A stretch of DNA of 64,000 nucleotides from the NCBI GenBank assembly GCA_963809475.1, contig CAWEJS010000001.1, positions 410,125-474,124 of the forward strand, given 5' to 3'. The notes below the pieces were generated by a model. It was not told the DNA's origin, did no database searches, and saw only the letters and a program-made list of their open reading frames with translations. Position numbers and translations under genes: made by a program. Origin of the DNA: an uncultured Acidobacteriota bacterium (GTDB lineage: Bacteria; Acidobacteriota; Vicinamibacteria; Vicinamibacterales; JAKQTR01). Shown here in pieces: positions 3,146 through 24,689 of this stretch (its first letter is position 1; each line of letters opens with the position of its first letter).

Positions 3146-4315
3146 GTGCGTGAACTGCCTCCCCTGACCCGCGAAGAGCTCGCCCGTTACGCCCGGCACA
3201 TGACGCTGCCGGATGTCGGCCTCGAAGGCCAGCGGAGGCTGAAGGCGGCGCGCGTCCTGTGCGTGGGCGCCGGAGGCCTGGGCTCGCCGGCCAGCATGTA
3301 CCTGGCCGCCGCCGGCGTGGGCACGCTCGGCGTGGTGGATGGCGACGTGGTCGACGCGAGCAACCTGCAGCGGCAGATCCTGCACGACACGGCCCGCGTG
3401 GGCGATCGGAAGGTGGCGTCGGCGCGAGACCGCCTGAAGGCCCTCAACCCGAACGTGACCGTCGAGACGCACTTCATCCAGCTGTCGGCCGCGACTGCGC
3501 TCGACATCCTCGGACGCTACGACGTCGTCCTCGACGGGTCGGACAACTTCCCCACGCGCTACCTGGTGAACGACGCGTGCGTGATGTTGGGGAAGCCGGA
3601 CGCGTTCGGCGCCGTCTTCAGGTTCGAAGGGCAGGCGGCCGTGTTTGGCGTGAAGAACGGCCCGTGCTACCGGTGCGTGTTTCCCGAGCCGCCGCCGCCC
3701 GATCTCGTACCGTCCTGCGCCGAGGCCGGTGTGTTCGGCGTGCTGCCGGGCATCATCGGCACCATCCAGGCCACCGAGGTGATCAAGCTGGTCCTGGAGA
3801 TCGGCGAGCCTCTCGTGGGACGCATGGTGGTGTACGACGCCCTTGGCATGACGTTCCGGGAGTTGAAGATCCCGAAAGACCCGGACTGCGCCGTGTGCGG
3901 CACGCACCCGACCGTGCGGACCCTCATCGACTACAACGCCTTCTGCGGGCTCGGCACGACCAAGAACGGCGCTGCGCCTGTCGCGGCGGCGGACGCGGAT
4001 CCCGTGATGACCGTCGACGAGTTGAAGGCGAGGATCGACCGCGGCGATCGGCCTTTCCTGCTCGACGTCCGCGAGCCTCTCGAGCACGATCTCGTACGCC
4101 TCGAGGACGATCTCCTCATCCCGATGGGCGAACTGGCGGCCCGCCAGCACGAACTGGATCCCGACCGCGAGATCGTCGTGTATTGCCACCACGGGAACCG
4201 GAGCGGCAGGGCCACCGCGTTCCTCCAGCGTCAGGGGTTCCATCGCGCCCGCAATCTCCGCGGCGGCATCGAGGAATGGGCGGCGAAGATCGACCCGTCT
4301 CTCCCTCGATACTGA
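3146..4315 (+). CDS. moeB: molybdopterin-synthase/ThiS adenylyltransferase (MoeB/ThiF family) with C-terminal rhodanese domain
   Basis: Contains the GAGGLGS nucleotide loop, DxVDxSNLQRQ, CxxC pairs (CYRC, CAVC), and a C-terminal rhodanese active-site loop (CHHGNRS). Confidence 0.85.
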   Translation: MRELPPLTREELARYARHMTLPDVGLEGQRRLKAARVLCVGAGGLGSPASMYLAAAGVGTLGVVDGDVVDASNLQRQILHDTARVGDRKVASARDRLKALNPNVTVETHFIQLSAATALDILGRYDVVLDGSDNFPTRYLVNDACVMLGKPDAFGAVFRFEGQAAVFGVKNGPCYRCVFPEPPPPDLVPSCAEAGVFGVLPGIIGTIQATEVIKLVLEIGEPLVGRMVVYDALGMTFRELKIPKDPDCAVCGTHPTVRTLIDYNAFCGLGTTKNGAAPVAAADADPVMTVDELKARIDRGDRPFLLDVREPLEHDLVRLEDDLLIPMGELAARQHELDPDREIVVYCHHGNRSGRATAFLQRQGFHRARNLRGGIEEWAAKIDPSLPRY

Positions 4316-4371
4316 CGCCCTGCCCCTTACTCCTTGCCACTTGTCCCTAGCTTCCCTGCGGGAATGGCGAC

Positions 4372-4400
4372 TTGACCGGTCCTGGATTCAGAGCTAATAT
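4372..4400 (+). promoter_or_regulatory. sigma70-type promoter of the isc operon (TTGACC-N17-TAATAT)
   Basis: TTGACC at 4372..4377 and TAATAT at 4395..4400 with a 17-nt spacer, about 35 nt upstream of the iscR ATG. Confidence 0.6.
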
Positions 4401-4419
4401 AGGACTAGTGGGGTCGTAT
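4399..4419 (+). promoter_or_regulatory. palindromic operator candidate (ATAGGAC-N7-GTCGTAT), likely IscR/Rrf2 autoregulatory site
   Basis: Inverted repeat overlapping the -10 box and start site. It resembles the half-site architecture of IscR type-1 sites. Confidence 0.45.
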
Positions 4420-4433
4420 TTGGACGGTTACGT

Positions 4434-4901
4434 ATGTTGAGACTGTCGAAAAAGGCGGACTACGCGCTCATCGCTGTGGCTCACCTGGCCAAAAAGCCGG
4501 GGTCGGCAAGCGCCCGGGAGATCGCGGAGAAGTACGAGATCCCGACGGAACTGCTGGCCAAGGTGCTGCAGCGGCTGGTCCGGCGCGGCCTGCTATCGTC
4601 CCAGCAGGGCGCGCGCGGCGGCTACCAGCTGGCGCACGCGGCCGCCGGCATCTCGGTGGCCGACGTCATCCAGGCGATCGACGGGCCGGTCTCGGTGACG
4701 GCGTGCGCGGCGCACGGCGATCGGTGCAGCCAGTTCGCGAAGTGCAATGTGCGGGATCCGCTCTGGCGCATCTCCGACATCATCCTGTCGGCGCTCTCGA
4801 GGACGACCGTGTCGGAGCTGGCCAGGGACGTCGCGGTCCCGGCGCCGCACGCCGCCCACGGCAGGCACGTGCACGTCCTGCCGACTCCCGTTCGCGCGTA
4901 G
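4434..4901 (+). CDS. iscR: Rrf2-family transcriptional regulator IscR
   Basis: Rrf2 N-terminus ([15 protein letters not shown]...), a wHTH, and three clustered Cys (C-x6-C-x5-C) for an Fe-S cluster. It is the first gene of the isc operon. Confidence 0.85.
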
Positions 4902-4912
4902 ACGAGGCCGTC

Positions 4913-6131
4913 ATGCTGAAGTTCCCGATCTATTTCGACAATCAGGCGACGACGCCGGTGGACCCGCGGGTCCTCGAGGCGATGCTGCCGTACTTCACGG
5001 AGCGCTTCGGCAATGCCGCCAGCCGCAACCACAAGTACGGCTGGGAGGCGGAAGAGGCGGTCGAGCAGGGGCGCAAGCAGGTCGCGGACCTCATCGGCGC
5101 GAGCGCGAAGGAGATTGTCTTCACGAGCGGCGCCACCGAGTCCGACAATCTCGCAATCAAGGGCGCGGCATCGATGTATCGCGAGAAGGGCGACCACATC
5201 ATCACGGCGGTCACCGAGCACAAGGCAGTCATCGACACCTGCAAGCGCCTCGAGAAGGACGGCTTCCGGGTGACGTACCTGCCGGTGAAGAAGGACGGGC
5301 TCATCGACCTCGACCAGTTGCGCGCGGCGATCACCGACAAGACGATCCTCGTCACGATCATGGCGGCGAACAACGAGATCGGCGTGCTGCAGCCGATCGC
5401 GGAAATTGGGGCGATCGCAAAGGAGAAGGGGATCCTCTTCCACACGGACGCGGTCCAGGCGAGCGGGGAAGGTGCCCTTCGACGTGAACGCGGCGAACGT
5501 GCACATGGCGTCGCTCAGCGCGCACAAGCTGTACGGCCCGAAGGGCGTGGGCGCCCTCTACGTGCGGCGCCGCAATCCGCGGGTGCTGTTGACGCCGATC
5601 CTCGACGGCGGCGGCCACGAGCGGGGCATGCGCTCCGGCACCCTCAACGTCCCGGGCATCGTCGGGTTCGGCAAGGCGGCGGAACTGTGCCGCCTCGAGA
5701 TGGCGGCCGAGAGCGTCCGGGTCGGGGCCCTGCGCGACCGGCTGAACGACAAACTGCACGCGGGCCTCGACCAGCTCTACATCAACGGCTCGATGGAGCG
5801 CCGCCTGCCCGGCAATCTGAACATCAGCTTCGCCTACGTCGAGGGCGAGTCGCTGCTGATGGGCATCAACGACGTGGCGGTGTCGTCGGGCTCGGCGTGC
5901 ACCTCGGCGAGCCTGGAGCCGTCCTACGTGTTGAAGGCCCTCGGGACGGGCGACGAACTGGCGCACTCGTCGATCCGGTTCGGCCTCGGGCGCTTCAACA
6001 CGGAAGAGGAAGTGGATTACGTCGTGGCCAAACTCGTGAGCGTGGTGAGCAAGCTGCGCGAGATGTCGCCCCTCTACGAGATGGCCCGGGAAGGCGTGGA
6101 CCTGTCGAAGATGCAGTGGCAGGCGCACTAA
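4913..6131 (+). pseudogene. iscS: cysteine desulfurase IscS interrupted by a +1 frameshift in a GGGG run (5465..5468)
   Basis: The N-terminal 184 codons are in frame 2 ([24 protein letters not shown]...[10 protein letters not shown]). The rest is in frame 0 ([26 protein letters not shown]...[19 protein letters not shown]...). Deleting one G restores a continuous IscS with the PLP-Lys (SAHK) and the catalytic Cys loop (SSGSAC). Confidence 0.85.
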
Positions 6132-6173
6132 CTCGGGACTCGGGCCTCGGGCCTCGGGGTCCGGGGTCCGGGC
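6132..6173 (+). repeat. G-tract array (CTCGGGACTCGGGCCTCGGGCCTCGGGGTCCGGGGTCCGGG) in the iscS-iscU spacer
   Basis: Six G3-4 tracts with 3-4 nt loops on the sense strand, directly after the iscS stop codon. It shares its first 13 nt with the array at 3084. Confidence 0.7.
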
Positions 6174-6207
6174 CTGACGACTCGCGGATAGATACGGAGA
6201 TAGCGCG

Positions 6208-6606
6208 ATGGCGTATTCGGACAAGGTCGTGGATCACTTCAACAACCCGCGGAACGTGGGATCGCTGCCCAAGCAGGACCCGACGGTGGGCACGGGCCTG
6301 GTCGGCGCCCCCGAGTGCGGCGACGTGATGAAGCTGCAGGTCAAGGTCAACCCGGAGACGGGCGTGATTGACGAGGCCAGGTTCAAGACGTTCGGGTGCG
6401 GTTCGGCGATTGCCAGTTCGAGCTTGGCCACCGAGTGGCTGAAGGGCAAGACGGTGGATCAGGCGCTCGAGATCAAGAACACGGACATCGTGGCCGAATT
6501 GTCGCTGCCGCCGGTGAAGATCCACTGCTCCGTGCTGGCCGAGGACGCGATCAAGGCGGCGATCGCGGACTACAAGCAGAAGCAGCGGGCCGGGGGCCAG
6601 CTATGA
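6208..6606 (+). CDS. iscU: Fe-S cluster assembly scaffold IscU
   Basis: [43 protein letters not shown] and [13 protein letters not shown] are canonical IscU motifs with the three Cys ligands. Confidence 0.95.
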
Positions 6607-6929
6607 TCACCGTGACGGATCAGGCGTCGGCGCAGATCCGGAAGCTCATGGCCAAGCAGGGGCTCACCGAGGGCGGCCTGCGCGTGGGCATCAAGGGCGG
6701 CGGCTGCTCGGGCCTGAGCTACACCTTCAGCTGGGAGAAGGAAGCGCGCCTCGGCGACGAGGTCATCGACGGCCCGGGCGGCACGAGGATCTTCGTGGAC
6801 AAGAAGAGCCTTCTCTACCTGAATGGCACGACGCTGGACTACGACTCGGCGCTGATGGGAAAGGGGCTGCACTTTATCAACCCCAACGCCAAGGCCTCGT
6901 GCGGCTGCGGCAGTTCGTTCACGGTGTAA
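6603..6929 (+). CDS. iscA: iron-sulfur cluster insertion protein IscA (A-type carrier)
   Basis: ATGA overlap with the iscU stop. GGGCSG motif and C-terminal CGCGSSF. Confidence 0.9.
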   Translation: MITVTDQASAQIRKLMAKQGLTEGGLRVGIKGGGCSGLSYTFSWEKEARLGDEVIDGPGGTRIFVDKKSLLYLNGTTLDYDSALMGKGLHFINPNAKASCGCGSSFTV

Positions 6930-7013
6930 TGCGTCCACGCCGGCTGGTGAGCGCCGGCTCGCAGGTGTGCCCGGACCGGATCACCACGGCCCCCAAGCCG
7001 GCCCGGGCGCAGT

Positions 7014-7054
7014 GAAGCCCCGCCGGGGACACCCGGCGGGGCTTCCTCTTGTTT
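7014..7054 (+). terminator. intra-operon hairpin with T-rich tail (attenuator/partial terminator) between iscA and hscB
   Basis: Perfect 14-bp stem (GAAGCCCCGCCGGG, loop GACA, CCCGGCGGGGCTTC) followed by CTCTTGTTT. Confidence 0.6.
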
Positions 7055-7060
7055 CACGAT

Positions 7061-7767
7061 ATGCAGCCCGATACCAACGCCGTTCCCATCGACAAGTGCA
7101 AGCACTGCGGCACGGAAGCCCCGGTGGACGTCCACGTCTGCCCGCGCTGCGAGAAGATCCTGACCCTGGGCCGCCACGGAGACTACTTCACGTTCCTTGC
7201 GCTCCGGCGCCGGCTGCACCTGGATCTCAAGGACCTCGATCAGCGTTTCCGCGCGCTCAGCCGGCTGTTCCATCCGGACTACTTCCAGAACGCGTCGCCC
7301 ACGGAGCGCCTGGCCAGCCTGGAGCGGTCCTCGTATCTCAACGACGCCTTCCGCACGCTGCGCGACCCGGTGACGCGCCTCGAGTACCTCCTGAAACTCG
7401 AAGGGTTCCTGCCGAAGGAGTCGCGTGACGCGACGAACGCTGTGCCCCAAGGGCTGCTCGAGAGGGTCTTCGCGCTGAATGAAGAGCTGGAGGCCATCCA
7501 GGAGATGCGGCAGGAGGGCGCCGCGCCCGAGGCGGTGGCCGAACGCCTCGACGCGGCGCGCGTGCCCATCGAGGCGCACCTGGCGGATCACGAGCGCCGG
7601 CTCGCGGAGCTGGCCGGAGTCCACGACGCACAACTTGAGGCCGGCGACGTGGCTGGCCGCCGCGAGACGCTGGCCTCGCTTCGGACGCTGCTCCTCGAGC
7701 GGACGTACCTCGCGAACCTCCTGGCGACCGTCAGGCGCGAGATGAACGGCGGCGAGGCGGCCCGGCT

Positions 7768-7771
<4 letters not shown>
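7061..7771 (+). CDS. hscB: co-chaperone HscB with N-terminal CxxC...CxxC zinc-ribbon
   Basis: J-domain ([29 protein letters not shown]), preceded by CKHCG...CPRCE. An ATG at 7061 is preferred over the TTG at 7049, which lies inside the terminator tail. Confidence 0.8.
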
Positions 7772-9636
<1,865 letters not shown>

Positions 9637-10341: not shown

Positions 10342-10890
10342 ATGCGGCCCGCGGCGGCGTGCGCGTTTGCCCTTCTCCTGGGCCTGTATCCGGCGATCGT
10401 CGGCGCGCAGAGCACGCCCGCCGGCGCCCCGGCTTCCACGCCCCCGTCTCCAGGCGTATCGGCCGACCAGGTCCGATCCGCGGCGGCCGCCGCGGCGACG
10501 GTCGTCTCGCTCGACCGGATCAAGCGCGGCCTCAGGCAGTCGGCGCCCTCGACCGTCAAGACACCCCTGAGGCTCGAGTACTACGTGGAGGTCCTGGGCG
10601 TGGCGCCGCCCATCTCGCTCTTCGAGATGGACGACCTCAGCTCCGGCCGCCTGCCGTACAACGCGCCCAGCTACGCGGACATGCGCAACGTGATGACGCC
10701 CGCCGAGTTCAGGGCCCCGGTCGTGTCCTTCAGCAACATCGCCAGGGGCGGTGCCAGGACGATCCTCGACCGGTCGGCCCAGCGCGCGCGCGCGCGGCGG
10801 CTGGAGGATGCGCGGCGGAAGGCGCTCGAGACGGAGCACGAGCGCCAGCAGAAACTCAGGGAAACCGTCGTCGTCGCTCCTCCGAAGTAG
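10342..10890 (+). CDS. hypothetical secreted protein
   Basis: The ATG at 10342 gives a signal-peptide-like start (MRPAAACAFALLLGLYPAIVGAQ). The C-terminus is charged and coiled. No family recognised. Confidence 0.5.
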   Translation: MRPAAACAFALLLGLYPAIVGAQSTPAGAPASTPPSPGVSADQVRSAAAAAATVVSLDRIKRGLRQSAPSTVKTPLRLEYYVEVLGVAPPISLFEMDDLSSGRLPYNAPSYADMRNVMTPAEFRAPVVSFSNIARGGARTILDRSAQRARARRLEDARRKALETEHERQQKLRETVVVAPPK

Positions 10891-11857
10891 CGGGGTGCAG
10901 CGCCCGAGCGAAGGCGCGGGCGGTCTGCGCGACCCTCGGCCCCGGCACGACCAACTCGCCGCCATAGAGCAGGTGCACGCGGCCGTTCTTCACCGCGGGT
11001 ACGGCTGGCAGCTGGTTCCACGCCTGGCGCTCGCGGGCCTCCTCACCGGACGCCGCCCGTTCCAGATAGTGCAGCTCGATGATGGCCTCCGGCCTGCGCG
11101 CGAGGATCGTCTCGGTTGACGCCACCGCCGACTCGCGTGTCACGTCGCCGAACACGTTGTCGCCCCCGGCCAGTTCGAGCAGGTCGTGCAGGAACCCCAC
11201 GCCGCCGCTCACGTTGACGGCGCGCAGTGACTGCGGCTCCCGGCCGATCACCAAAGCCGTTCTGGGCCGGGGAAGACCCGCGACACTGGCCCGGACGCGT
11301 TCCAGGTCGCGTTCGAGAGAGGAGGCGGCCGCCTCGGCTTCCGCGGTCAGGCCCAGCCTGGCCCCGAGACTGCGCATGCCCGCCGTGATGTCGGCGAGCG
11401 AGCCGTGCTTGTAGACATAGAGCGGAATTCCCGCGCGATCGAGCTGGGCGCGCAGGTCCGTCTGGCTGGCATACGCCACCACGAGGTCCGGGCGGAGCGA
11501 CAGGATCCGCTCCACGTCGGGGTCGACGAGCGCGCCGACGCGTGCCAGCCCTTCGACCTCGGGCGGAAAGTGGTCGAAGCTGCTCACCGCCACCACGCGC
11601 GGCCCCGCTCCGATGGCGAACAGCACCTCGGTCGCCGACGGGACGAGGGAGATGACGCGCGCGGGCACATGGCCGGGCTGCTCGACCCGGCCACCCGGGG
11701 GCTCCCCTCGACTTCGCTCGGGGCCAGGAAGCCCCCGGGCTACGACGACCTGCGTGGCGGGCGATACACCCGTGAGCAGAATAAGGGTCAGGAGAAGCGT
11801 GGCGGTTGGCGTGACAGCCCCAGTCCCGAGCCCCGAGCCCCGAGGCCCAATCCTCAT
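10856..11857 (-). CDS. ABC transporter periplasmic binding protein, cobalamin/Fe-siderophore type (BtuF-like)
   Basis: RVISLVPSATEVLFAIG...VVAVS...LRPDLVV pattern of PBP class 8. ATGA start/stop overlap with the upstream permease. Confidence 0.8.
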   Translation of the reverse strand: MRIGPRGSGLGTGAVTPTATLLLTLILLTGVSPATQVVVARGLPGPERSRGEPPGGRVEQPGHVPARVISLVPSATEVLFAIGAGPRVVAVSSFDHFPPEVEGLARVGALVDPDVERILSLRPDLVVAYASQTDLRAQLDRAGIPLYVYKHGSLADITAGMRSLGARLGLTAEAEAAASSLERDLERVRASVAGLPRPRTALVIGREPQSLRAVNVSGGVGFLHDLLELAGGDNVFGDVTRESAVASTETILARRPEAIIELHYLERAASGEEARERQAWNQLPAVPAVKNGRVHLLYGGELVVPGPRVAQTARAFARALHPATSEERRRRFP

Positions 11858-12858
11858 CGCTGCCTCACCAGCAGCCACAGGAAGAACGGCCCCCCGACGA
11901 GCGCGGTGATGATGCCGACCGGCAGCTCGATGGGCGCCATCACCGTGCGCGCGACGACGTCGGCGGCGACGAGAAACGCGGCCCCGAAGAGGGCCGACGC
12001 CGGAAGCGTCACGCGATGGTCTGCTCCCACCATCAGCCGCACGAGATGCGGAACGATGATGCCGATGAACCCGATGGGCCCGCCGAGTGATACCGCCGCG
12101 CCGGTGGCCATCGACGCGCTGAAGAACGCGACGCGCTGCACGCGCAGCACGTTCACGCCGCGCGAGGCGGCGGCGTCGGTGTCCAGGCTCAGCAGGTTCA
12201 GCGCCCTGGGCAGCCAGGCGAACGCGACGAAGGCGGCCGCGCAGAGCGGCAGGGCGGCCAGGATCGGCGCGTAGCCGGCGACGTCGAGGTCGCCCATCAG
12301 CCAGCGCACCGTGCGCAGCGCCTCCGCCGAGTCGGCGACGTACTGCACGAACAGAATCAGCGCCGAGAAGAACGCGTTCAGCGTCACGCCCGCGAGCAGC
12401 AGGACGTTCGTCGAGAAGCCGCTGTGGCGGGCGCGGGCCATGCCGTAGACGATGCCCACGGCGCCGAGGGAGCCGGCGAAACTCGCGGCGGTGACCGCCG
12501 ACACGCCCCAGAACGACAGGTGCAGCCGCAGCGTGATGGCCAGCATCGCCCCCAGGGCCGAGCCGGCGGACACGCCGAGGGTGAATGGCGTCGCGAGGGG
12601 ATTGCGGAGCAGCGCCTGGAAGACCACGCCTGCCGCGGCCAGCGTGGCGCCGACCAGCGCGCCTGCCAGGGCGCGCGGCAGTCTCGCGATGAAGAAGATC
12701 TGGGCGTCGACGTTGTCGGCGAAGGGAATCGAGCGGTCGAACGCGCGGCCCAGTCGGATCGGCGTCGTGCCGATGAGCGGCGCGGCCATCACGGCGGCGA
12801 ACGCCAGGCCTCCGAACACGAGCATCGACACGGCGAGGCGGCGGCGGACGTCAGTCAC
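11854..12858 (-). CDS. FecCD/BtuC-family ABC permease
   Basis: 334 aa, multi-TM, with a conserved C-terminus (GPIGFIGIIVPHLVR...ELPVGIITALVGGPFFLWLL). Confidence 0.85.
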   Translation of the reverse strand: MTDVRRRLAVSMLVFGGLAFAAVMAAPLIGTTPIRLGRAFDRSIPFADNVDAQIFFIARLPRALAGALVGATLAAAGVVFQALLRNPLATPFTLGVSAGSALGAMLAITLRLHLSFWGVSAVTAASFAGSLGAVGIVYGMARARHSGFSTNVLLLAGVTLNAFFSALILFVQYVADSAEALRTVRWLMGDLDVAGYAPILAALPLCAAAFVAFAWLPRALNLLSLDTDAAASRGVNVLRVQRVAFFSASMATGAAVSLGGPIGFIGIIVPHLVRLMVGADHRVTLPASALFGAAFLVAADVVARTVMAPIELPVGIITALVGGPFFLWLLVRQR

Positions 12859-13696
12859 GGCCGAGCCTGCGAAGCGGGACGACCGTCAGGTGCCCGGCGG
12901 CGTGGTGCGGATACACGTCGGCGACGACGCCGTAGAGCGCCTGGATGGAGAGGCTCGTCAGCGTGTCGCCGGTGGGCCCCGACGCCACGACGCGCCCGTC
13001 CGAGAGCATCACCAGCGAGCCGCACAGCGCGGCGGCGAAGTTCAGGTCGTGCGTGGCGACGACGATCGTCAGGGCGCGGTCTCGGTTGAGCCGGGCGAGG
13101 AGCGCCGCGATGTCGAACTGGGCGCCGATGTCGAGCGACGCGGTCGGCTCGTCGAGCAGCAGGATCTCGGCCTGCTGCGCGAGGGCGCTCGCGATCACGA
13201 CGCGCTGCTTCTCACCGCCGGAGAGCGTGGCGAAGCGGCGGCGCTCCAGCGCGGCGGTGCCCGTCGCGGCGAGGGCCTCCCGCGCGAGCGCCACGTCGCG
13301 CGGCCCTTCGAGCTGAAAGGTGCCGAGATGCGGGTAGCGGCCCATGAGGGCGATCTCGAGCACCGAGTAGTCGAACGCCAGGTGGGTTTCCTGCGGCACG
13401 ACCGCCATCGAGCGCGCCAGCAGGCCGCGCGGGATCGACGCCAGGGTCACCCCTTCGAGCGTGACCGCCCCGGATTCGGGCGTCAGCATGCCGGCCAGCA
13501 GGCGCAGCAGCGTGGTCTTGCCGGACCCGTTGGGCCCGAGAATGCCGACGATCCGGCCGCGCTCGATCGCGACGCTGACACCCTGCACGCCCGGCAGCGC
13601 GGGCCCGGCCCATCCCGGCGCCACGCCGGGCGCAGGGCGGTGCGCGGCTCCGGCGCCTCGGTCGTGGACATACGTGACGTCAGCGGCCCGCAGCAA
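12851..13696 (-). CDS. ABC transporter ATP-binding protein (BtuD/FecE-like)
   Basis: Walker A (GPNGSGKTTLL), signature (LSGGEKQR) and Walker B (LLLDEP). The 424-aa track ORF is trimmed to a TTG at 13696 because its upstream part overlaps the receptor gene, so the start is uncertain. Confidence 0.8.
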   Translation of the reverse strand: MLRAADVTYVHDRGAGAAHRPAPGVAPGWAGPALPGVQGVSVAIERGRIVGILGPNGSGKTTLLRLLAGMLTPESGAVTLEGVTLASIPRGLLARSMAVVPQETHLAFDYSVLEIALMGRYPHLGTFQLEGPRDVALAREALAATGTAALERRRFATLSGGEKQRVVIASALAQQAEILLLDEPTASLDIGAQFDIAALLARLNRDRALTIVVATHDLNFAAALCGSLVMLSDGRVVASGPTGDTLTSLSIQALYGVVADVYPHHAAGHLTVVPLRRLGRD

Positions 13697-15950
13697 GGCG
13701 CACTCCGACGGAGAACGCGCGGCGGGGCGCGGGGTAGCCGAAGGCCGATTCGTACCGCCGATCGAACAGGTTGTCGACCCGGGCCACCACGTCGGCCTGC
13801 CTGTTGAGATGGATGGCCGCGCCCGCGTCGGCCACAGCAAAGCCGGGCGAGTGGAAGAGGCCGCCCGACGCGCCCCAGTTGGGCTCGACGTCGAGGACGC
13901 GAGACCGCCCGCCCGCGCGCACATACAGCGTGGCGCGGGGGTGCCGCCAGAGGACATCGGCGCTCGCCTGATGGCGCGGCCGCCGGATGAGCCGGTCGCC
14001 GACTGCGAAGGGGGCCGGGGCGGCGCCGGACGACCGGTCCACCGCGAGGATGGCGGTGTCGAGGACGGAATACGTCGCGTGGGCCTCGATACCGCCCCGC
14101 GTGCGGACCGCGAGGGTCGTCTCAACGCCGCGCGCCCGCGCGTTGGAGATGTTGTCCGTGCGATAGCGGCTGTAGTCCTGGAGCGCGCGCCCGACGGCCA
14201 CGATCAGATCGTCGTACCGGTTGTCGAAGCACGTCGCGTCGACGGTGACGCGGCCGCCGGCGAGCGCCTGTTCGAACCCCAGGTCCACGCTCCGGCTGCG
14301 TTCCGGCGCAAGGCGCGGATTGTCGGTGAACGCGATCTCGAACGCGTCCGGCGGGCGGATGCCCGTCCCGGCGCTGGCGTGCGCCCGGCTCCAGTTGCCG
14401 CTGCTGCCGTCGGACGTCCTCAGGTAGTAGCTCACGGCGGCGCGCGGGTTGAGAGACACCACGCGGTCCGCGGCCATGGCCGGCCGGGGTTCCCACGCCA
14501 GAGGATCCGCCTCGAGGGCGCCGCGCACGATGTGCTCGGCGCGCAGGCCCGCCGTCGCGAAGAGGCGCGACATCGACCGCCACCGCAGCTCGCCGAAGTA
14601 GCCCTCCACGCGCCGCTCGACCGGGATCCGCTGCGCGGCCGATCCCGTGATGTACGTGCTGTCCGCGCGCTCGAGTTCGAGCGCCGCGCCGGCCGATCCG
14701 CCGAGCGCCCTCGTGAACGCGCGATCCACCTGCCCGCGTGCCGTGTAGCGCCGGGTCCGCGACGCCGAATCGCCCCACGGGCTCACGAACGTCGACCGTT
14801 CGTCGGCCGCGCTCGACTGCAGCCGCACCGCGGTCGCCGCTCCCCACTCGCGCGTGAACTCGAGCGAGCCCACGCGGAAGTCGTTCGTGCCCCGCGAGAC
14901 GCGGTCGATGCCGGCGTACGCGCCGAGCGGATCCGATCCGAACGGACCCGGGTTGCCGCGTTCGTTCGAGCCGTAGCGGGCGGCCGCGCGGAGGGTCGAC
15001 CGTGCCCCCGCGCGCCAGGCGGCCGAGAGCGACACCGTCGAGGCGCGGTAATCGTCGTTCGTGACAGTGCCTGCCGTGGGGTTCGGCGCCTCGCCGGTCC
15101 ATCCGTCGCTCGCCGCCCGCTCGGCGCTGACGCCCCAGTCGATCGGGCCGCGCGACCCGGTCCAGCCGACGGCCGCGCGGGTCGTTCCGTACGATCCGGC
15201 CTCGAGCAGGCTCGACCAGGCCGGCGGCCCGCCGACCTTCGACCGCAGCTGGATCACGCCCCCGATGGCGTCGGCGCCGAACACCGCGCTCTGCGGCCCG
15301 CGGACGATTTCGACCTGGCCGAGGCCGAAGGTCGTGAGGTGGCCGAAGTCGAACCCGCCGCCGAAGCTGTTCAGCTTGACGCCGTCGACGAGAACCAGGG
15401 TGAAGTCCGACTCGCCCCCGCGCGGAAACACGGCCGTCACGCTTCCGAGGCCGCCCGACGGCGCCACCGTCGTGCCCGGCACCAGGCGCAGCGCCTCGGC
15501 CACCGTCGTCAACTGGCGGTCGTCGAGATCGCGCCGCGTGAGCACCGACACGCCCGCGGTCGTTTCCGATCGCGGCACCTCGACGAAGGAGGCCGACACG
15601 ACGACCGTGTCCGTCAGCGCGGCGATTCGCAGGGTGATCTCCACGCGAAGGGCGTCGGCGGGCGCGATGACGGCGCGCACGGGATCGGCGGCGAAGCCGT
15701 CTGCCGTTGCAATCAACTCATAGGTGCCGGGAGGCAGCGCAGCGAACGAGAAGGTGCCGTCCGCGAGGCTGGCGGCGCGGCGGACGGTGCCGGGTCCCGA
15801 GCGCAGGCTCAGGACCGCGCCGGCAACCGGCTGGCCCGACGGATCGAGCACGCGCCCGTGGATGGAGGCCGGGTCCGCGAAGGCGGGTGGCGCCATCGCG
15901 AGGAGCAGACTCGTGGCGAGGATGAGTGGGACAACGAAGATCGGACGCAT
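13680..15950 (-). CDS. TonB-dependent outer-membrane receptor with N-terminal CarboxypepD_reg domain (BtuB-like by context)
   Basis: Signal peptide, then a carboxypeptidase-regulatory-like fold (GRVLDPSGQPVAGAVLSL...DGTFSFAALPPGTYEL), then plug (VVVSA...) and barrel. It sits directly downstream of a cobalamin riboswitch. Confidence 0.85.
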   Translation of the reverse strand: MRPIFVVPLILATSLLLAMAPPAFADPASIHGRVLDPSGQPVAGAVLSLRSGPGTVRRAASLADGTFSFAALPPGTYELIATADGFAADPVRAVIAPADALRVEITLRIAALTDTVVVSASFVEVPRSETTAGVSVLTRRDLDDRQLTTVAEALRLVPGTTVAPSGGLGSVTAVFPRGGESDFTLVLVDGVKLNSFGGGFDFGHLTTFGLGQVEIVRGPQSAVFGADAIGGVIQLRSKVGGPPAWSSLLEAGSYGTTRAAVGWTGSRGPIDWGVSAERAASDGWTGEAPNPTAGTVTNDDYRASTVSLSAAWRAGARSTLRAAARYGSNERGNPGPFGSDPLGAYAGIDRVSRGTNDFRVGSLEFTREWGAATAVRLQSSAADERSTFVSPWGDSASRTRRYTARGQVDRAFTRALGGSAGAALELERADSTYITGSAAQRIPVERRVEGYFGELRWRSMSRLFATAGLRAEHIVRGALEADPLAWEPRPAMAADRVVSLNPRAAVSYYLRTSDGSSGNWSRAHASAGTGIRPPDAFEIAFTDNPRLAPERSRSVDLGFEQALAGGRVTVDATCFDNRYDDLIVAVGRALQDYSRYRTDNISNARARGVETTLAVRTRGGIEAHATYSVLDTAILAVDRSSGAAPAPFAVGDRLIRRPRHQASADVLWRHPRATLYVRAGGRSRVLDVEPNWGASGGLFHSPGFAVADAGAAIHLNRQADVVARVDNLFDRRYESAFGYPAPRRAFSVGVRLAAGR

Positions 15951-15994: not shown

Positions 15995-16172
15995 CTGGTC
16001 GGATCGCCAGGTGTCCTGACTCGCGGATCCTCACGCGCGCGTTTCGTCTTCCAGCGCCTCGAGGCGCCGTGACGGGCAGCCGATGTGCGGCTGCCGCAAC
16101 TGCGCACGCTCCCCGCTTACAGTGGCGGGACCGTGTGGGTTTCTCACCCAACTTCCCTGGCCGACCGACCGG
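15995..16172 (-). promoter_or_regulatory. cobalamin (B12) riboswitch
   Basis: The minus strand reads GGTCGGCCAGGGAAGTTGGGTGAGAAACCCACACGGTCCCGCCACTGTAAGCGGGGAGC ... GAGTCAGGACACCTGGCGATCCGACC. This covers the conserved core (AGGGAA..GGTG.GAA.CC...CCCGCCACTGT), the B12 box (AGTCAGGACACCTGGC) and P1 closure (GGTCGG/CCGACC). A hairpin (ATCGGTG/CACCGAT) abuts the GGAGG RBS. Confidence 0.8.
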
Positions 16173-17896: not shown

Positions 17897-18499
<603 letters not shown>

Positions 18500-18522
18500 C
18501 GCTTCGCTCTCCAGACAATTAG

Positions 18523-18550
18523 TCAGTAGACAGTAGTCAGTATTCAGTAG
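18523..18550. repeat. AT-rich heptamer array TCAGTAG ACAGTAG TCAGTAT TCAGTAG
   Basis: Four tandem 7-mers in the sod/prx convergent spacer. An inverted partner array lies at 18591..18611. Confidence 0.85.
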
Positions 18551-18590
18551 AAAAGCCGGGGACCCGCGGCCACGCCGTCCCGTCCACCTT

Positions 18591-18611
18591 CTACTGGCTA
18601 CTGGCTACTGA
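18591..18611. repeat. inverted heptamer array CTACTGG CTACTGG CTACTGA (reverse complement of the 18523 array)
   Basis: Three 7-mers. The array overlaps the last codons and stop of the peroxiredoxin-like gene. Together with 18523..18550 it can form a stem of about 21 bp around a GC-rich loop. Confidence 0.85.
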
Positions 18612-19092
18612 TCCGCTTCAGTTCCCCCACGATGACGTCGTGTTCCGGAAACTCGGTCTGCCGGTCCGCCACGAACGCGTAGCGGACGATCCCGTCGCGG
18701 TCGATGAGGAAGAGGGCCGGGCGCGCGATGTTCCATGCGTCGAACCCGATCTGGTGCCACACGCCGTAGGCCTTCACCGTCTCGCGCGTGTCGTCGATCA
18801 GAATCTCGAGGGGCAGTCCCGTGTCCTCGAGGTAGCGCTTCACCTTTTCGGAGCGCTGCGCCACGACGGCCATCACCGTCGCGCCGAGATCCCGATACTG
18901 CTGCGAGTTGAGCGCCAGGTCGCCGAACCGGCGACGGCAGTTGGGTCACCACGTGCCCCGGTGGAACCCCAGCAGCACCGGACTTCGCGCCAGCGCCGCT
19001 TCCAGCGACACGGGCTCGCCCTTCTGGTTCGGCAGCGTGAAGAGCGGCGCCCGGTCGCCGGCCTTGAGAGTCGTGCTCTCGTCACGTGACAT
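18598..19092 (-). CDS. peroxiredoxin-like (AhpC/TSA/redoxin family) protein with in-frame TGA at the active-site position; candidate selenoprotein (U-x-x-C)
   Basis: The ATG at 19092 is preceded by GAGGAG. The reading frame gives MSRDESTTLKAGDRAPLFTLPNQKGEPVSLEAALARSPVLLGFHRGTW-TGA(18946..18948)-PNCRRRFGDLALNSQQYRDLGATV, then continues into the track ORF 18598..18876 in the same frame. The TGA replaces the first Cys of the redoxin W-C-P-x-C motif. Confidence 0.7.
18914..18938 (-). other. putative bacterial SECIS hairpin
   Basis: The core stem GUCGCCG / CGGCGAC starts 10 nt after the UGA and has an apical GUU (G and U in the loop, as in the fdhF SECIS). It is extended by GCC/GGC with a CU bulge. 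Confidence 0.5.
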
Positions 19093-19182
19093 TGCCCGGT
19101 TTCTCTCCTCGAGGCTCTCCAACCCGCCAACAGAATTGTTAGCGCCGCGTGGCCCGTTGCGAAAATAGACCCGACCCCTTTG

Positions 19183-20406
19183 TCAGAAGAGCGTGACGGC
19201 GACCGGTTCGCCCTTCTCGACCACGTCGACCTGCGACGGGATCTCGATGTAGCCGTCCGCCTGCGACATGCTGGTGATGTCCCCGGAGGCCTTGAACGCC
19301 GGCATCGCCAGGCCGCCAACAAGACGCACCGTATAGAACTGATGCCGCCCCGTCGTCGAGACCACGCGCTGGCCGAGCGGCACGCGTGCAACGCGCGGCG
19401 CCCACTCCGGCAGACGGGCCATGCGGCGGATTGGCCCGACGAGCAGCATGTAGGCGTTCGAGAGGCACGAGGTGGGATAGCCGGGCATGCCGAACACCGG
19501 CTTGCCGCCGACCGTGCCGAAGAGCGTCGGTTTGCCCGGCTTGACGGCGATGCCGTGGAACAGCACCTCGCCCATTCGTTCCACCACGTCAAGGATCAAG
19601 TCGCGCTCGCCGACCGAACTGCCGCCGGAGAAGAGGACGACGTCCTCGGCGAGGCAGGCGTTGATTGCGCGCTCGAGGTCGGGCACGTGGTCCGGCGCCG
19701 TCGGGTACGGGACCGGCACGGCGCCATGTTCGCGCAGGATCGCGCTCAAGGTGAACTTGTTGATGTCGTAGATGTGACCGGGCTTCAGCGCCTGACCCGG
19801 GTCCGCCACCTCGTTGCCCGTCGAGAGGATCGCCACGCGGGGCTGCGCGTACACCTCGACCTCGAGCACGCCCAGGGCGGCGATCGCGCCGATGCGGCTC
19901 GGGTTGAGCAGGTCTCCGGGTGCAAGCACCGTCTGGCCCGCGCGGATGTCCGCGCCCTGCTTCGTCACGTTCTGGCCGGGATAGACGGGGCTGAACACGC
20001 GCACGGCTCCGCCCGGGTCCTTCTCCGTCTCTTCGACCATGACGACGCTGTCGGCGCCTTCCGGGACTGGAGCGCCCGTCGCGATTTCGGTGCACTGCGC
20101 CGGCCCCACGCGTCGCGCCGGCACCTGCCCGGTGAAGACCGTTTCCACCCAGGCCAGCGTCCGCGGGTCGTGCGTCGACGCGCCGACGGTGTCGGCGGCG
20201 CGGACGGCATAGCCGTCCATGGCGGCGCGCGTGAACGGAGGCACGTCCGCCAGGGCCTCGACGGCGCGCGCGACAACGCGCCCGCTCGCGAGATCGACGC
20301 GGATGCGCTCCGTCCTGCCGACGGGGGCGATCGCGCGATCGATGATCTCGCGCGCCGCCTCCAGCGTGATCGTCTCGCGGATTGGCCGCATGCGGCTGCC
20401 GCTCAC
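19183..20406 (-). CDS. moeA: molybdopterin molybdenumtransferase MoeA
   Basis: FTRAAMDGYAV, GAPVPEGADSVV and STGNE...SGGSSVGERD are MoeA domain motifs. Confidence 0.9.
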   Translation of the reverse strand: MSGSRMRPIRETITLEAAREIIDRAIAPVGRTERIRVDLASGRVVARAVEALADVPPFTRAAMDGYAVRAADTVGASTHDPRTLAWVETVFTGQVPARRVGPAQCTEIATGAPVPEGADSVVMVEETEKDPGGAVRVFSPVYPGQNVTKQGADIRAGQTVLAPGDLLNPSRIGAIAALGVLEVEVYAQPRVAILSTGNEVADPGQALKPGHIYDINKFTLSAILREHGAVPVPYPTAPDHVPDLERAINACLAEDVVLFSGGSSVGERDLILDVVERMGEVLFHGIAVKPGKPTLFGTVGGKPVFGMPGYPTSCLSNAYMLLVGPIRRMARLPEWAPRVARVPLGQRVVSTTGRHQFYTVRLVGGLAMPAFKASGDITSMSQADGYIEIPSQVDVVEKGEPVAVTLF

Positions 20407-20906
20407 CGCCCCGCCTCCCTCACCAGGTGCCCGAGTTCGGGCAGAATCAGCTTCGTCATGGCCAGCCGGACGGCGGCTTCCGAGCCGGGGAGCGACAGCA
20501 CCACCTTGCCCTGCGCGAGACCGCCCACCGCGCGGCTCAGCATCGCGGCCGAGCCGATCTCCTGGTAGCTCAGCATCCGGAAGAGCTCGCCGAAGCCGTC
20601 GAGCCTCTTGTCGAGAAGCGCCGAGACGGCCTCGTAGGTCGTGTCGCGCGACGTGATGCCGGTGCCGCCCGAGGTGATGATGACCTGCACGTCGGCGTTC
20701 GCGAGCTGCAATTCGATCGCCTCGCGCACCTCGCCAGGCTCGTCGCGGACGATCTTCCGCCCCGTCACCTGGTGGCCCTCCGCCCAGAGCAGGTCGCAGA
20801 TGGCGCGCCCGCTCGAGTCGGTGGCCAGCGTGCGCGTGTCGCTGATGGTCAGGATGTAGCAGTGAGCGACGGCGGGGGAGAGCTGCTTGTGCTCGGTGTG
20901 GCTCAT
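20403..20906 (-). CDS. moaB: molybdenum cofactor biosynthesis protein MoaB (MogA/MoaB family)
   Basis: The start is set at ATG 20906 (MSHTEHK). Motifs: TSGGTGITSRD, GFGELFRMLSYQEIG and PGSEAAV. 4-nt overlap with moeA. Confidence 0.85.
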   Translation of the reverse strand: MSHTEHKQLSPAVAHCYILTISDTRTLATDSSGRAICDLLWAEGHQVTGRKIVRDEPGEVREAIELQLANADVQVIITSGGTGITSRDTTYEAVSALLDKRLDGFGELFRMLSYQEIGSAAMLSRAVGGLAQGKVVLSLPGSEAAVRLAMTKLILPELGHLVREAGR

Positions 20907-21073
20907 GGGGGGATTATGGATCGGGGGCCGGGGACCAGGCGCGGGGCCTCTGTCGGGTTGGACGCCGGGCCCCACGCGCCGGGCGGAGGTGACGCCCGGC
21001 TGTCGGGATGTTATCCTTTGCATGGTAAAGTCATTTACGTCGAGCGACGGCCTGCTCGAGGAGCGTGTGACGC

Positions 21074-24612: not shown

Positions 24613-24689
<77 letters not shown>

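Follow-up and report, generated by a model that had tools for sequence, protein, structure and literature searches.

Does the in-frame TGA of a small redox gene stop translation, or is it read as selenocysteine (Sec)? The question arises at positions 18598..19092, minus strand, of a 64,000-nucleotide stretch (hereafter the window) of contig CAWEJS010000001.1 from an uncultured Acidobacteriota bacterium of the Vicinamibacterales, where the annotated open reading frame (ORF) comprises only 92 amino acids. An initial annotation had proposed that this ORF is the tail of a longer, Sec-containing peroxiredoxin (Prx)-like protein. Our analysis agrees in the essentials: the gene very probably encodes a 164-residue cytoplasmic oxidoreductase of the thioredoxin fold, in which UGA 49 would be read as Sec by means of a selenocysteine insertion sequence (SECIS) hairpin inside the ORF, a reading that we base on comparison of sequences and on modelling.

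Conservation of the in-frame TGA

The elements of the gene are the following.

18598..19092, minus strand: Prx-like gene, putative Sec gene, 164 codons plus a TAG stop (translation, Pfam, conservation in orthologs on both sides of the TGA)
19092..19090, minus strand: ATG start; 18600..18598, minus strand: TAG stop (both from the sequence)
18946..18948, minus strand: in-frame TGA, putative Sec codon, residue 49 (TGA in orthologs, Cys in homologs)
18937..18939, minus strand: TGC codon of Cys52, UxxC partner of Sec49 (invariant column; alignments with 2cx3 and ResA)
19105..19110, minus strand: GAGGAG, possible ribosome-binding site, function predicted from sequence (12 nt before the ATG)

The minus-strand frame from the ATG at 19092 to the TAG at 18598 is interrupted only once, by the TGA at codon 49, and carries no other lesion. 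The annotated ORF (18598..18876) is the C-terminal fragment of the 164-codon gene. The conceptual product consists of MSRDESTTLKAGDRAPLFTLPNQKGEPVSLEAALARSPVLLGFHRGTW, the stop and PNCRRRFGDLALNS..., and around codon 49 it reads LLGFHRGTW-stop-PNCRRRFGDLA. With the stop modelled as Cys, the Pfam family AhpC-TSA matched residues 12-138 (E 5.8e-29; 101 bits, cutoff 26) and Redoxin matched residues 10-149 (E 3.8e-24), and both matches span the TGA. The start position of the gene is conserved among orthologs, and the spacing of 12 nt between GAGGAG and ATG is rather long. The initial annotation had placed the ATG, the TGA and the frame into the 92-amino-acid ORF at these coordinates and had noted the GAGGAG, and the sequence and its translation confirmed all of them.

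TGA is the usual terminator in the window, where it ends 27 of the 42 predicted genes. The genetic code is therefore standard, and a reassignment of TGA was ruled out. A scan of the whole window for TGA codons with a high-GC3 coding signal over 40 codons on each side returned two sites, codon 49 and 7013..7015, the second of which is merely a stop in frame with the start of the next gene and was rejected. A search for other genes of this kind, which covered the window and the DNA flanking every orthologous locus, gave no credible candidate but only same-frame gene junctions and one TGA in moeA. The latter (locus L041, 673-675) lies at a conserved Gly codon, within the segment that reads ...EIATGAPVPEG... 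in the MoeA of the window, and represents a GGA-to-TGA change that is probably an assembly error or a lesion and not Sec.

Scans of GTDB species genomes and JGI metagenomes yielded 74 orthologous loci, which belong to Vicinamibacterales or Acidobacteriota where named. The codon following HRG(T/V)W was TGA in 72 of them, and the remaining two carried TGT (L065) and TGC (L077). TAA or TAG was found at this position in none of the 74. The orthologs with TGA span 46-89% identity and come from many independent samples and assemblers, and among the orthologous loci the protein is conserved while synonymous changes are abundant on both sides of the TGA. In the protein database, all 77 full-length homologs had Cys in the TGA column (GTW-C-PNC), which is the column where the initial annotation had suggested looking for Cys or Sec. 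These full-length homologs are about 160 amino acids long and only about 60% identical. The closest protein matches (75-88%) were fragments of 90-119 amino acids that begin at downstream Met or Val codons; 43 database entries are of this fragment type. No full-length Sec form was present among the hits of the protein search, in which all close relatives were truncated or frameshifted calls, with the exception of P0001, a natural Cys variant. As predicted initially, the gene is thus missed or annotated as a fragment or a split gene.

P0001 is the protein of L065, the locus with TGT. It is 96% identical to the Sec forms of L007 and L073, from which it differs at this codon by a single base (TGA/TGT). 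L065 keeps the SECIS sequence with one change (C18 to G), which suggests either that Sec gave way to Cys very recently or that strains are polymorphic here. Five further genes of a clade with Cys, for which flanks were available, occupy the same slot (GH3 / moaB / moeA / X ... sodA, with X the Prx-like gene), so that the Sec and Cys forms are orthologs.

A split gene, in which translation ends at the UGA after 48 residues and the C-terminal protein (the 92-amino-acid ORF) is started on its own, is what gene callers report and what the fragments in the database represent. However, few parts of the protein are as well conserved as the 23 codons that separate the TGA from the next start codon downstream (PNCRRRFGDLA...), which means that this stretch must be translated. 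In addition, neither the half before nor the half after the TGA makes up a complete thioredoxin fold in the structural model and the structure matches, and the Cys orthologs are single polypeptides. It could also be argued that the gene is a pseudogene, or that a Cys codon was misread as TGA in sequencing or assembly, since TGA is one base away from TGC and TGT and some related assemblies do contain errors (the frameshifts in L010 and P0085). Against this stand the recurrence of the same TGA in independently assembled loci, the coding conservation on both of its sides and a gene in the window that is otherwise intact. The 72 of 74 independent loci, the 96%-identical Sec/Cys pair and the 23 conserved codons together exclude an error, a pseudogene and a split gene for practical purposes, and we give each of these explanations almost no credence. 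This also removes the sequencing error or pseudogene that the initial annotation had named as a way in which its proposal could fail. The frameshifts mentioned above lie in the N-terminal half of the Prx-like gene (L010, 3001-3448, and protein P0085); the TGA and the SECIS are kept there, and the frameshifts are likely assembly indel errors.

The hairpin downstream of the UGA

The following RNA features were located directly 3′ of the TGA.

18919..18935, minus strand: H1, candidate SECIS hairpin GUCGCCG-GUU-CGGCGAC, 7 bp, loop GUU (minimum free energy (MFE) fold, pair probability 0.84-0.87)
18913..18939, minus strand: extended H1, four extra pairs (UGCC/GGCG) past a 2-nt CU bulge, -16.2 kcal/mol (folding)
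18916..18939, minus strand: codons +3 to +10 after the TGA (TGC CGT CGC CGG TTC GGC GAC CTG), synonymous variation suppressed (codon entropy)
18914..18932, minus strand: block common to all Sec forms, GCCGGUUCGGYGAMCUGGC, G17-C35 (invariant alignment columns 26-44)

The first base of H1 lies exactly 10 nt after the UGA. The hairpin had been noted at this distance in the initial annotation and was recovered at 18935..18919. The published model of bacterial SECIS elements (bSECIS) describes a loop of 3-9 nt, an upper stem of 4-16 bp, a G in the first two loop positions, a distance from UGA to loop of 16-37 nt and an MFE of at most -7.5 kcal/mol (PMC13188914). H1 (loop GUU, 7 bp, 17 nt, -11.8 kcal/mol, or -16.2 when extended) lies within all of these limits, as does an alternative hairpin, H2 (loop GGU, 8 bp, 21 nt, -11.8 kcal/mol). 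The check with a bacterial SECIS model that had been recommended for this site is therefore positive. Like the E. coli fdhF-type bSECIS, the hairpin lies within the ORF about 10-13 nt after the UGA and has a small apical loop with G followed by U or G. It differs in that a triloop sits on a perfect G+C-rich stem of 7-8 bp without the 5′ bulged U, and in that two overlapping registers occur in different lineages. A third hairpin that includes the UGA (CCGAAC/GUUCGG) was rejected; it relies on a codon that varies freely between CCG and CCC, and the ribosome would melt it.

To what extent these codons are constrained was seen in 64 distinct orthologous sequences, 62 of them with TGA. Codon entropy was about 0 at codons +3 to +10, compared to 1.1-1.8 bits for the Arg, Leu and Gly codons that precede the TGA, and to 1.1-1.4 bits there for the amino acids that codons +3 to +10 encode. 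Arg+6 was CGG in 62 of 62 sequences, Arg+5 was CGC in 56 of 57, Phe+7 was TTC in 63 of 64 and Leu+10 was CTG in all 64, the two Cys forms counted in. The same codons vary in seven Cys-form DNAs (CGG/CGT/CGC; AAG/AGA/AAA/CGG; TTT; AGC/GCC; GAG; CTC), in which neither H1 nor H2 was predicted. At the protein level the Cys clade allows RRKFGELA, RKKFSELA and RTRLTELA, whereas Sec forms hold to RRRFG(D/E)LA. Synonymous change at codons +3 to +10 is thus suppressed in Sec forms and allowed in the Cys clade, which ties the constraint to the UGA, as expected for a SECIS. This comparison of synonymous sites argues for an RNA element under selection specifically in the UGA forms.

Two versions of this element can be distinguished (positions numbered with the U of UGA as 1). 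The 19-nt block shared by all Sec forms varies at Y and M only, besides a G-to-A change at position 20 in L076, and it is coextensive with H2 (8 bp, loop GGY); in the window H2 has one U.C mismatch. In the Asp-form genes (CGU...GGC-GAC), of which there are 38 distinct sequences with the window counted in, H1 at 14-30 with -11.8 kcal/mol is the dominant fold in all cases, extendable to 10-36 with the CU bulge (-16.2 kcal/mol; pair probability about 0.84). In the Glu-form genes (12 distinct sequences; GGU-GAA) H1 falls to about -4 kcal/mol and H2 (17-35, loop GGU, -11.8 kcal/mol) is favoured. According to these predicted folds, the second hairpin, shifted by 5 nt, is used by about a quarter of the distinct Sec sequences. 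H1 had been named as the core hairpin; it dominates in the Asp form including the window, but not in the Glu-form orthologs with their shifted H2. The fixed codons are CGU, UGC and GGC in the Asp form (UGC and CGU being near-invariant) and GGU and GAA in the Glu form; the Cys clade has GAG. In each form, the fixed and otherwise unfavoured codons are explained by its own hairpin. G-G-U is present at the tip of both folds, and the family consensus obtained with RNAalifold is H2. L074 carries both codon sets and looks like an intermediate between the registers. In a rough neighbour-joining tree without support values, the Glu-form sequences branch deeply among Cys lineages, and the Asp form makes up a large derived clade.

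A tentative explanation, which we favour somewhat less than its opposite, is that one 19-nt block offers two interchangeable SECIS solutions, with register-switching under coding constraint and repeated Sec-to-Cys reversion. The flip would require GAC to GAA with a linked change of GGC to GGU and a relaxed CGU, and H2 would place the SelB-binding tip 5 nt farther from the UGA (tip G-G-U-U-C in H1, G-G-U in H2). The assignment of a SelB-binding hairpin to each lineage is likewise presumptive.

Active site, decoding and class of the protein

The active site comprises U49-P-N-C52 within the motif G-T-W-U-P-N-C. The closest solved sequences were the BCP/PrxQ of A. pernix (2cx3, E 9.5e-20) and the Sulfolobus Bcp proteins; ResA came next (E about 1e-9). 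Aligned with BCP, the TGA matches the Ser of F-S-P-V-C (T/SxxC of Prx), Cys52 takes the place of the peroxidatic Cys and the invariant Pro125 that of the catalytic Arg. Aligned with ResA (3c71, 4nmu), GTW-C-PN-C matches GTW-C-xx-C and Pro125 the cis-Pro. A nearly invariant Arg124 adjoins Pro125 and may make some contribution to catalysis. In an AlphaFold (AF2) model of the Cys variant P0001 (pLDDT 84.5), helix 50-68 has residue 49 at its N-terminal tip, and Foldseek retrieved PrxQ/BCP first (TM 0.74-0.83) and ResA with somewhat lower values (0.65-0.70). The N-terminus, MSRDESTTLKAGDRAP, is hydrophilic, and no signal peptide or anchor was read from the sequence. Sec at the first position of UxxC is an exposed nucleophile, as in GPx and UxxC thioredoxins.

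The protein shares length, overall scaffold and the position of Cys52 with PrxQ/BCP (A. pernix BCP, PDB 2cx3/4gqf), but Sec replaces the Thr/Ser of PxxxT/SxxC and an invariant Pro replaces the catalytic Arg. With ResA/TlpA/CcmG it shares the GTW-C-x-x-C motif, residue for residue with GTWCEPC of ResA, and the cis-Pro, Pro125. Those proteins are membrane-anchored and extracytoplasmic, whereas the window protein is without an anchor and its overall similarity to them is below that to BCP. PrxU (TxxU) is also a selenoprotein of the AhpC/TSA superfamily, but there Sec replaces the peroxidatic Cys, while in the window protein it stands three residues earlier (UxxC). Alignments and model thus suggest a UxxC and cis-Pro site of the thioredoxin/ResA type on a PrxQ-like scaffold, i.e. 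a Prx-like protein that is no true peroxiredoxin. The initial description as peroxiredoxin-like with the TGA at the first Cys fits the CxxC of thioredoxin and ResA, and does not fit a true Prx, where the TGA falls on Thr/Ser.

We propose that the UGA at codon 49 would be read as Sec through the short in-ORF hairpin acting as a bacterial SECIS. The hairpin, in the window a triloop starting with G-U and placed 10 nt past the UGA, would bring SelB.GTP.Sec-tRNASec to the ribosome. Sec49, which stands at the N-terminal end of the active-site helix, would then attack a peroxide or disulfide substrate; the selenenylsulfide that it forms with Cys52 would be resolved by a reductant of the thioredoxin type. 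Binding of SelB, incorporation of selenium, the substrate, the reductant and the selenenylsulfide cycle are what we infer. What the analysis itself shows is the conserved UGA, the Sec/Cys pairs, the RNA constraint confined to UGA forms, the fold and the active-site geometry.

Several observations weigh against this reading. The energy of H1 alone is not significant in a context of 69% G+C (-16.2 kcal/mol, z = -1.71, with 14 of 200 shuffles as stable), and no compensatory covariation was seen for either hairpin, since the core is invariant and covariation tests are uninformative. None of the NCBIfam models reached its cutoff, so that the subfamily assignment rests on motif and homology. Scores against cutoffs were 64/140 for thiol peroxidase, 50/170 for ResA, 25/260 for PrxQ and 19/270 for PrxU; the model of a SelL-related redox protein (NF040769) scored 50.7 bits against 120 and covered residues 15-111 only. 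Furthermore, neither the window nor about 600 kb of related loci yielded selA, selB, selD or tRNA-Sec. ARAGORN detected no tRNA-Sec in the window and 45 loci, and a scan of the window with Rfam gathering thresholds returned no SECIS or tRNA-Sec family but only a tRNA and a cobalamin riboswitch. When E. coli SelD, SelA and SelB sequences were used as tblastn probes against the window and all loci, the only hit was to a GTPase domain in the distant L095 and L096. The ORF concerned has 741 amino acids with the G domain from about residue 240, and it looks more like IF-2 than like SelB.

Our data point to decoding of the UGA with the help of the RNA element and do not by themselves specify the amino acid that is inserted. 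Cys or Ser could be inserted instead of Sec, either by a selC*-type tRNACys(UCA) with a SelB-like factor or by an allo-tRNA acting as an opal suppressor. Such a tRNASec-like tRNACys with a UCA anticodon occurs beside selB-like genes in deltaproteobacteria (Mukai et al., PMC5389517), and Acidobacteria have allo-tRNAs that are possible nonsense suppressors (PMC5389517). However, selC* was reported in anaerobic Firmicutes, Thermodesulfobacteria, Nitrospirae and Proteobacteria, not in Acidobacteria (PMC5389517). A general suppressor could do without a hairpin particular to this gene, and the 27 ordinary TGA stops of the window would be read through as well. Insertion of Cys would bring no benefit of TGA plus hairpin over TGC, yet the TGA form has been kept across 46-89% divergence. 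Recoding to an amino acid other than Sec is therefore improbable, although less so than an error or a split gene.

Sec decoding also agrees with what is on record for related proteins. A Prx-like thiol:disulfide oxidoreductase (PF00578, UxxC/UxxU) is listed as 'predicted with high confidence' in Table 1 of PMC13188914, where the class is traced to Kryukov & Gladyshev 2004, as cited in that table. Prx-like selenoproteins were also reported from the Sargasso Sea (PMC1088965) and from GOS (PMC2398784), the latter with 225 members of 'Prx-like 1' and, under '#Prx-like 1' in its supplement, Sec proteins with FRGQWUPYCR and YRGHWUPYCRR. The initial placement in an established class of bacterial selenoproteins is hence in line with the published Prx-like UxxC proteins (PF00578). 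Shared with that class are the AhpC/TSA domain, UxxC in place of the TxxC of true Prx, a SECIS just 3′ of the UGA and abundant Cys homologs. One GOS 'Prx-like 1' protein (...TIFRGQWUPYCRAEL...) was compared with the window protein; the two are 32% identical across 93 residues (E 4e-15), and their U residues are aligned with each other. Besides this distance of about 32%, measured on one published sequence, the window group differs as a distinct Vicinamibacterales/Acidobacteriota subfamily with a fixed HRGTW-U-PNC-RRRFG, the moaB-moeA/sodA synteny and a SECIS sequence of its own. The gene is thus an unannotated addition to a class known since 2004-2005 and not a new kind of system. Selenoproteins have been on record in the phylum Acidobacteria since 2006; a search of the literature on Vicinamibacter and selenocysteine returned nothing relevant, and the Vicinamibacterales orthologous group appears to be unrecorded so far.

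A whole orthologous group of Vicinamibacterales/Acidobacteriota, which are abundant bacteria of soil, sediment and wetland, is mis-annotated in public databases. Once corrected, the annotation would give a selenoprotein, and hence a need for selenium, to a lineage seldom considered in this respect. The approximately 70 Sec forms, the syntenic Cys clade and the 96%-identical Sec/Cys pair make up a clean natural data set, which can be used to study the advantage of Sec over Cys, the coding of a SECIS inside a conserved peptide and the decay of the SECIS after loss of Sec.

Neighbourhood of the gene

The Prx-like gene is surrounded by the following features.

17897..18499, plus strand: Fe/Mn superoxide dismutase gene sodA, convergent with the Prx-like gene (Pfam; synteny in 52 loci)
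18554..18571, minus strand: terminator-like hairpin followed by a T-run, downstream of the Prx-like gene and common with the convergent sodA
19183..20406, minus strand: moeA, immediately upstream of the Prx-like gene (Pfam; synteny)
20403..21023, minus strand: moaB/mog-type gene (Pfam)

Pfam bore out the initial statement that sodA lies beside the gene and moeA-moaB upstream. The order moaB, moeA, Prx-like gene with the convergent Fe/Mn superoxide dismutase was kept in essentially all loci with enough flank. The synteny with the dismutase fits an antioxidant role of the Prx-like protein without proving it. In L099-L103 (an all-Cys clade, at about 3480-5900) an inserted DUF2520-panC-panB block separates the Prx-like gene from sodA. 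The start of the Prx-like gene overlaps the moeA stop in this clade, which suggests translational coupling; in the window a gap of 90 nt separates the two genes and holds a weak site, 19187-19170, that resembles a terminator.

Arrays of the heptamer CAGTAG-N at 18520-18552 and 18589-18611 are inverted and flank the terminator hairpin, with arms of 22 nt that are 86% complementary. The pattern CAGTAGNCAGTAG, for which 0.03 occurrences would be expected, has five copies at these arrays and none elsewhere in the window. The array on the upstream side extends over the last codons and the stop of the Prx-like gene, and L001 and L002 show the same repeat (...SSQ-stop-PVASSQ-stop).

Further away in the window, a cobalamin riboswitch (Rfam RF00174, 65 bits; 16009-16158, minus strand) lies upstream of three transport genes on the minus strand, for a TonB-dependent receptor (13680-15950), a FecCD-type permease (11854-12858) and a periplasmic binding protein (10856-11878), which together probably form a B12 uptake operon. 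The region 4434-9636 (plus strand) looks like an isc-type Fe-S assembly region by reading of N-termini only, with putative Rrf2/IscR-like, IscU-like and HscA/DnaK-like proteins. A tRNA-Arg(ACG) gene at 24613-24689 (plus strand), just past the GH3 gene, is syntenic in at least 10 related loci, among them L012, L037, L051, L056, L058, L070, L071 and L073.

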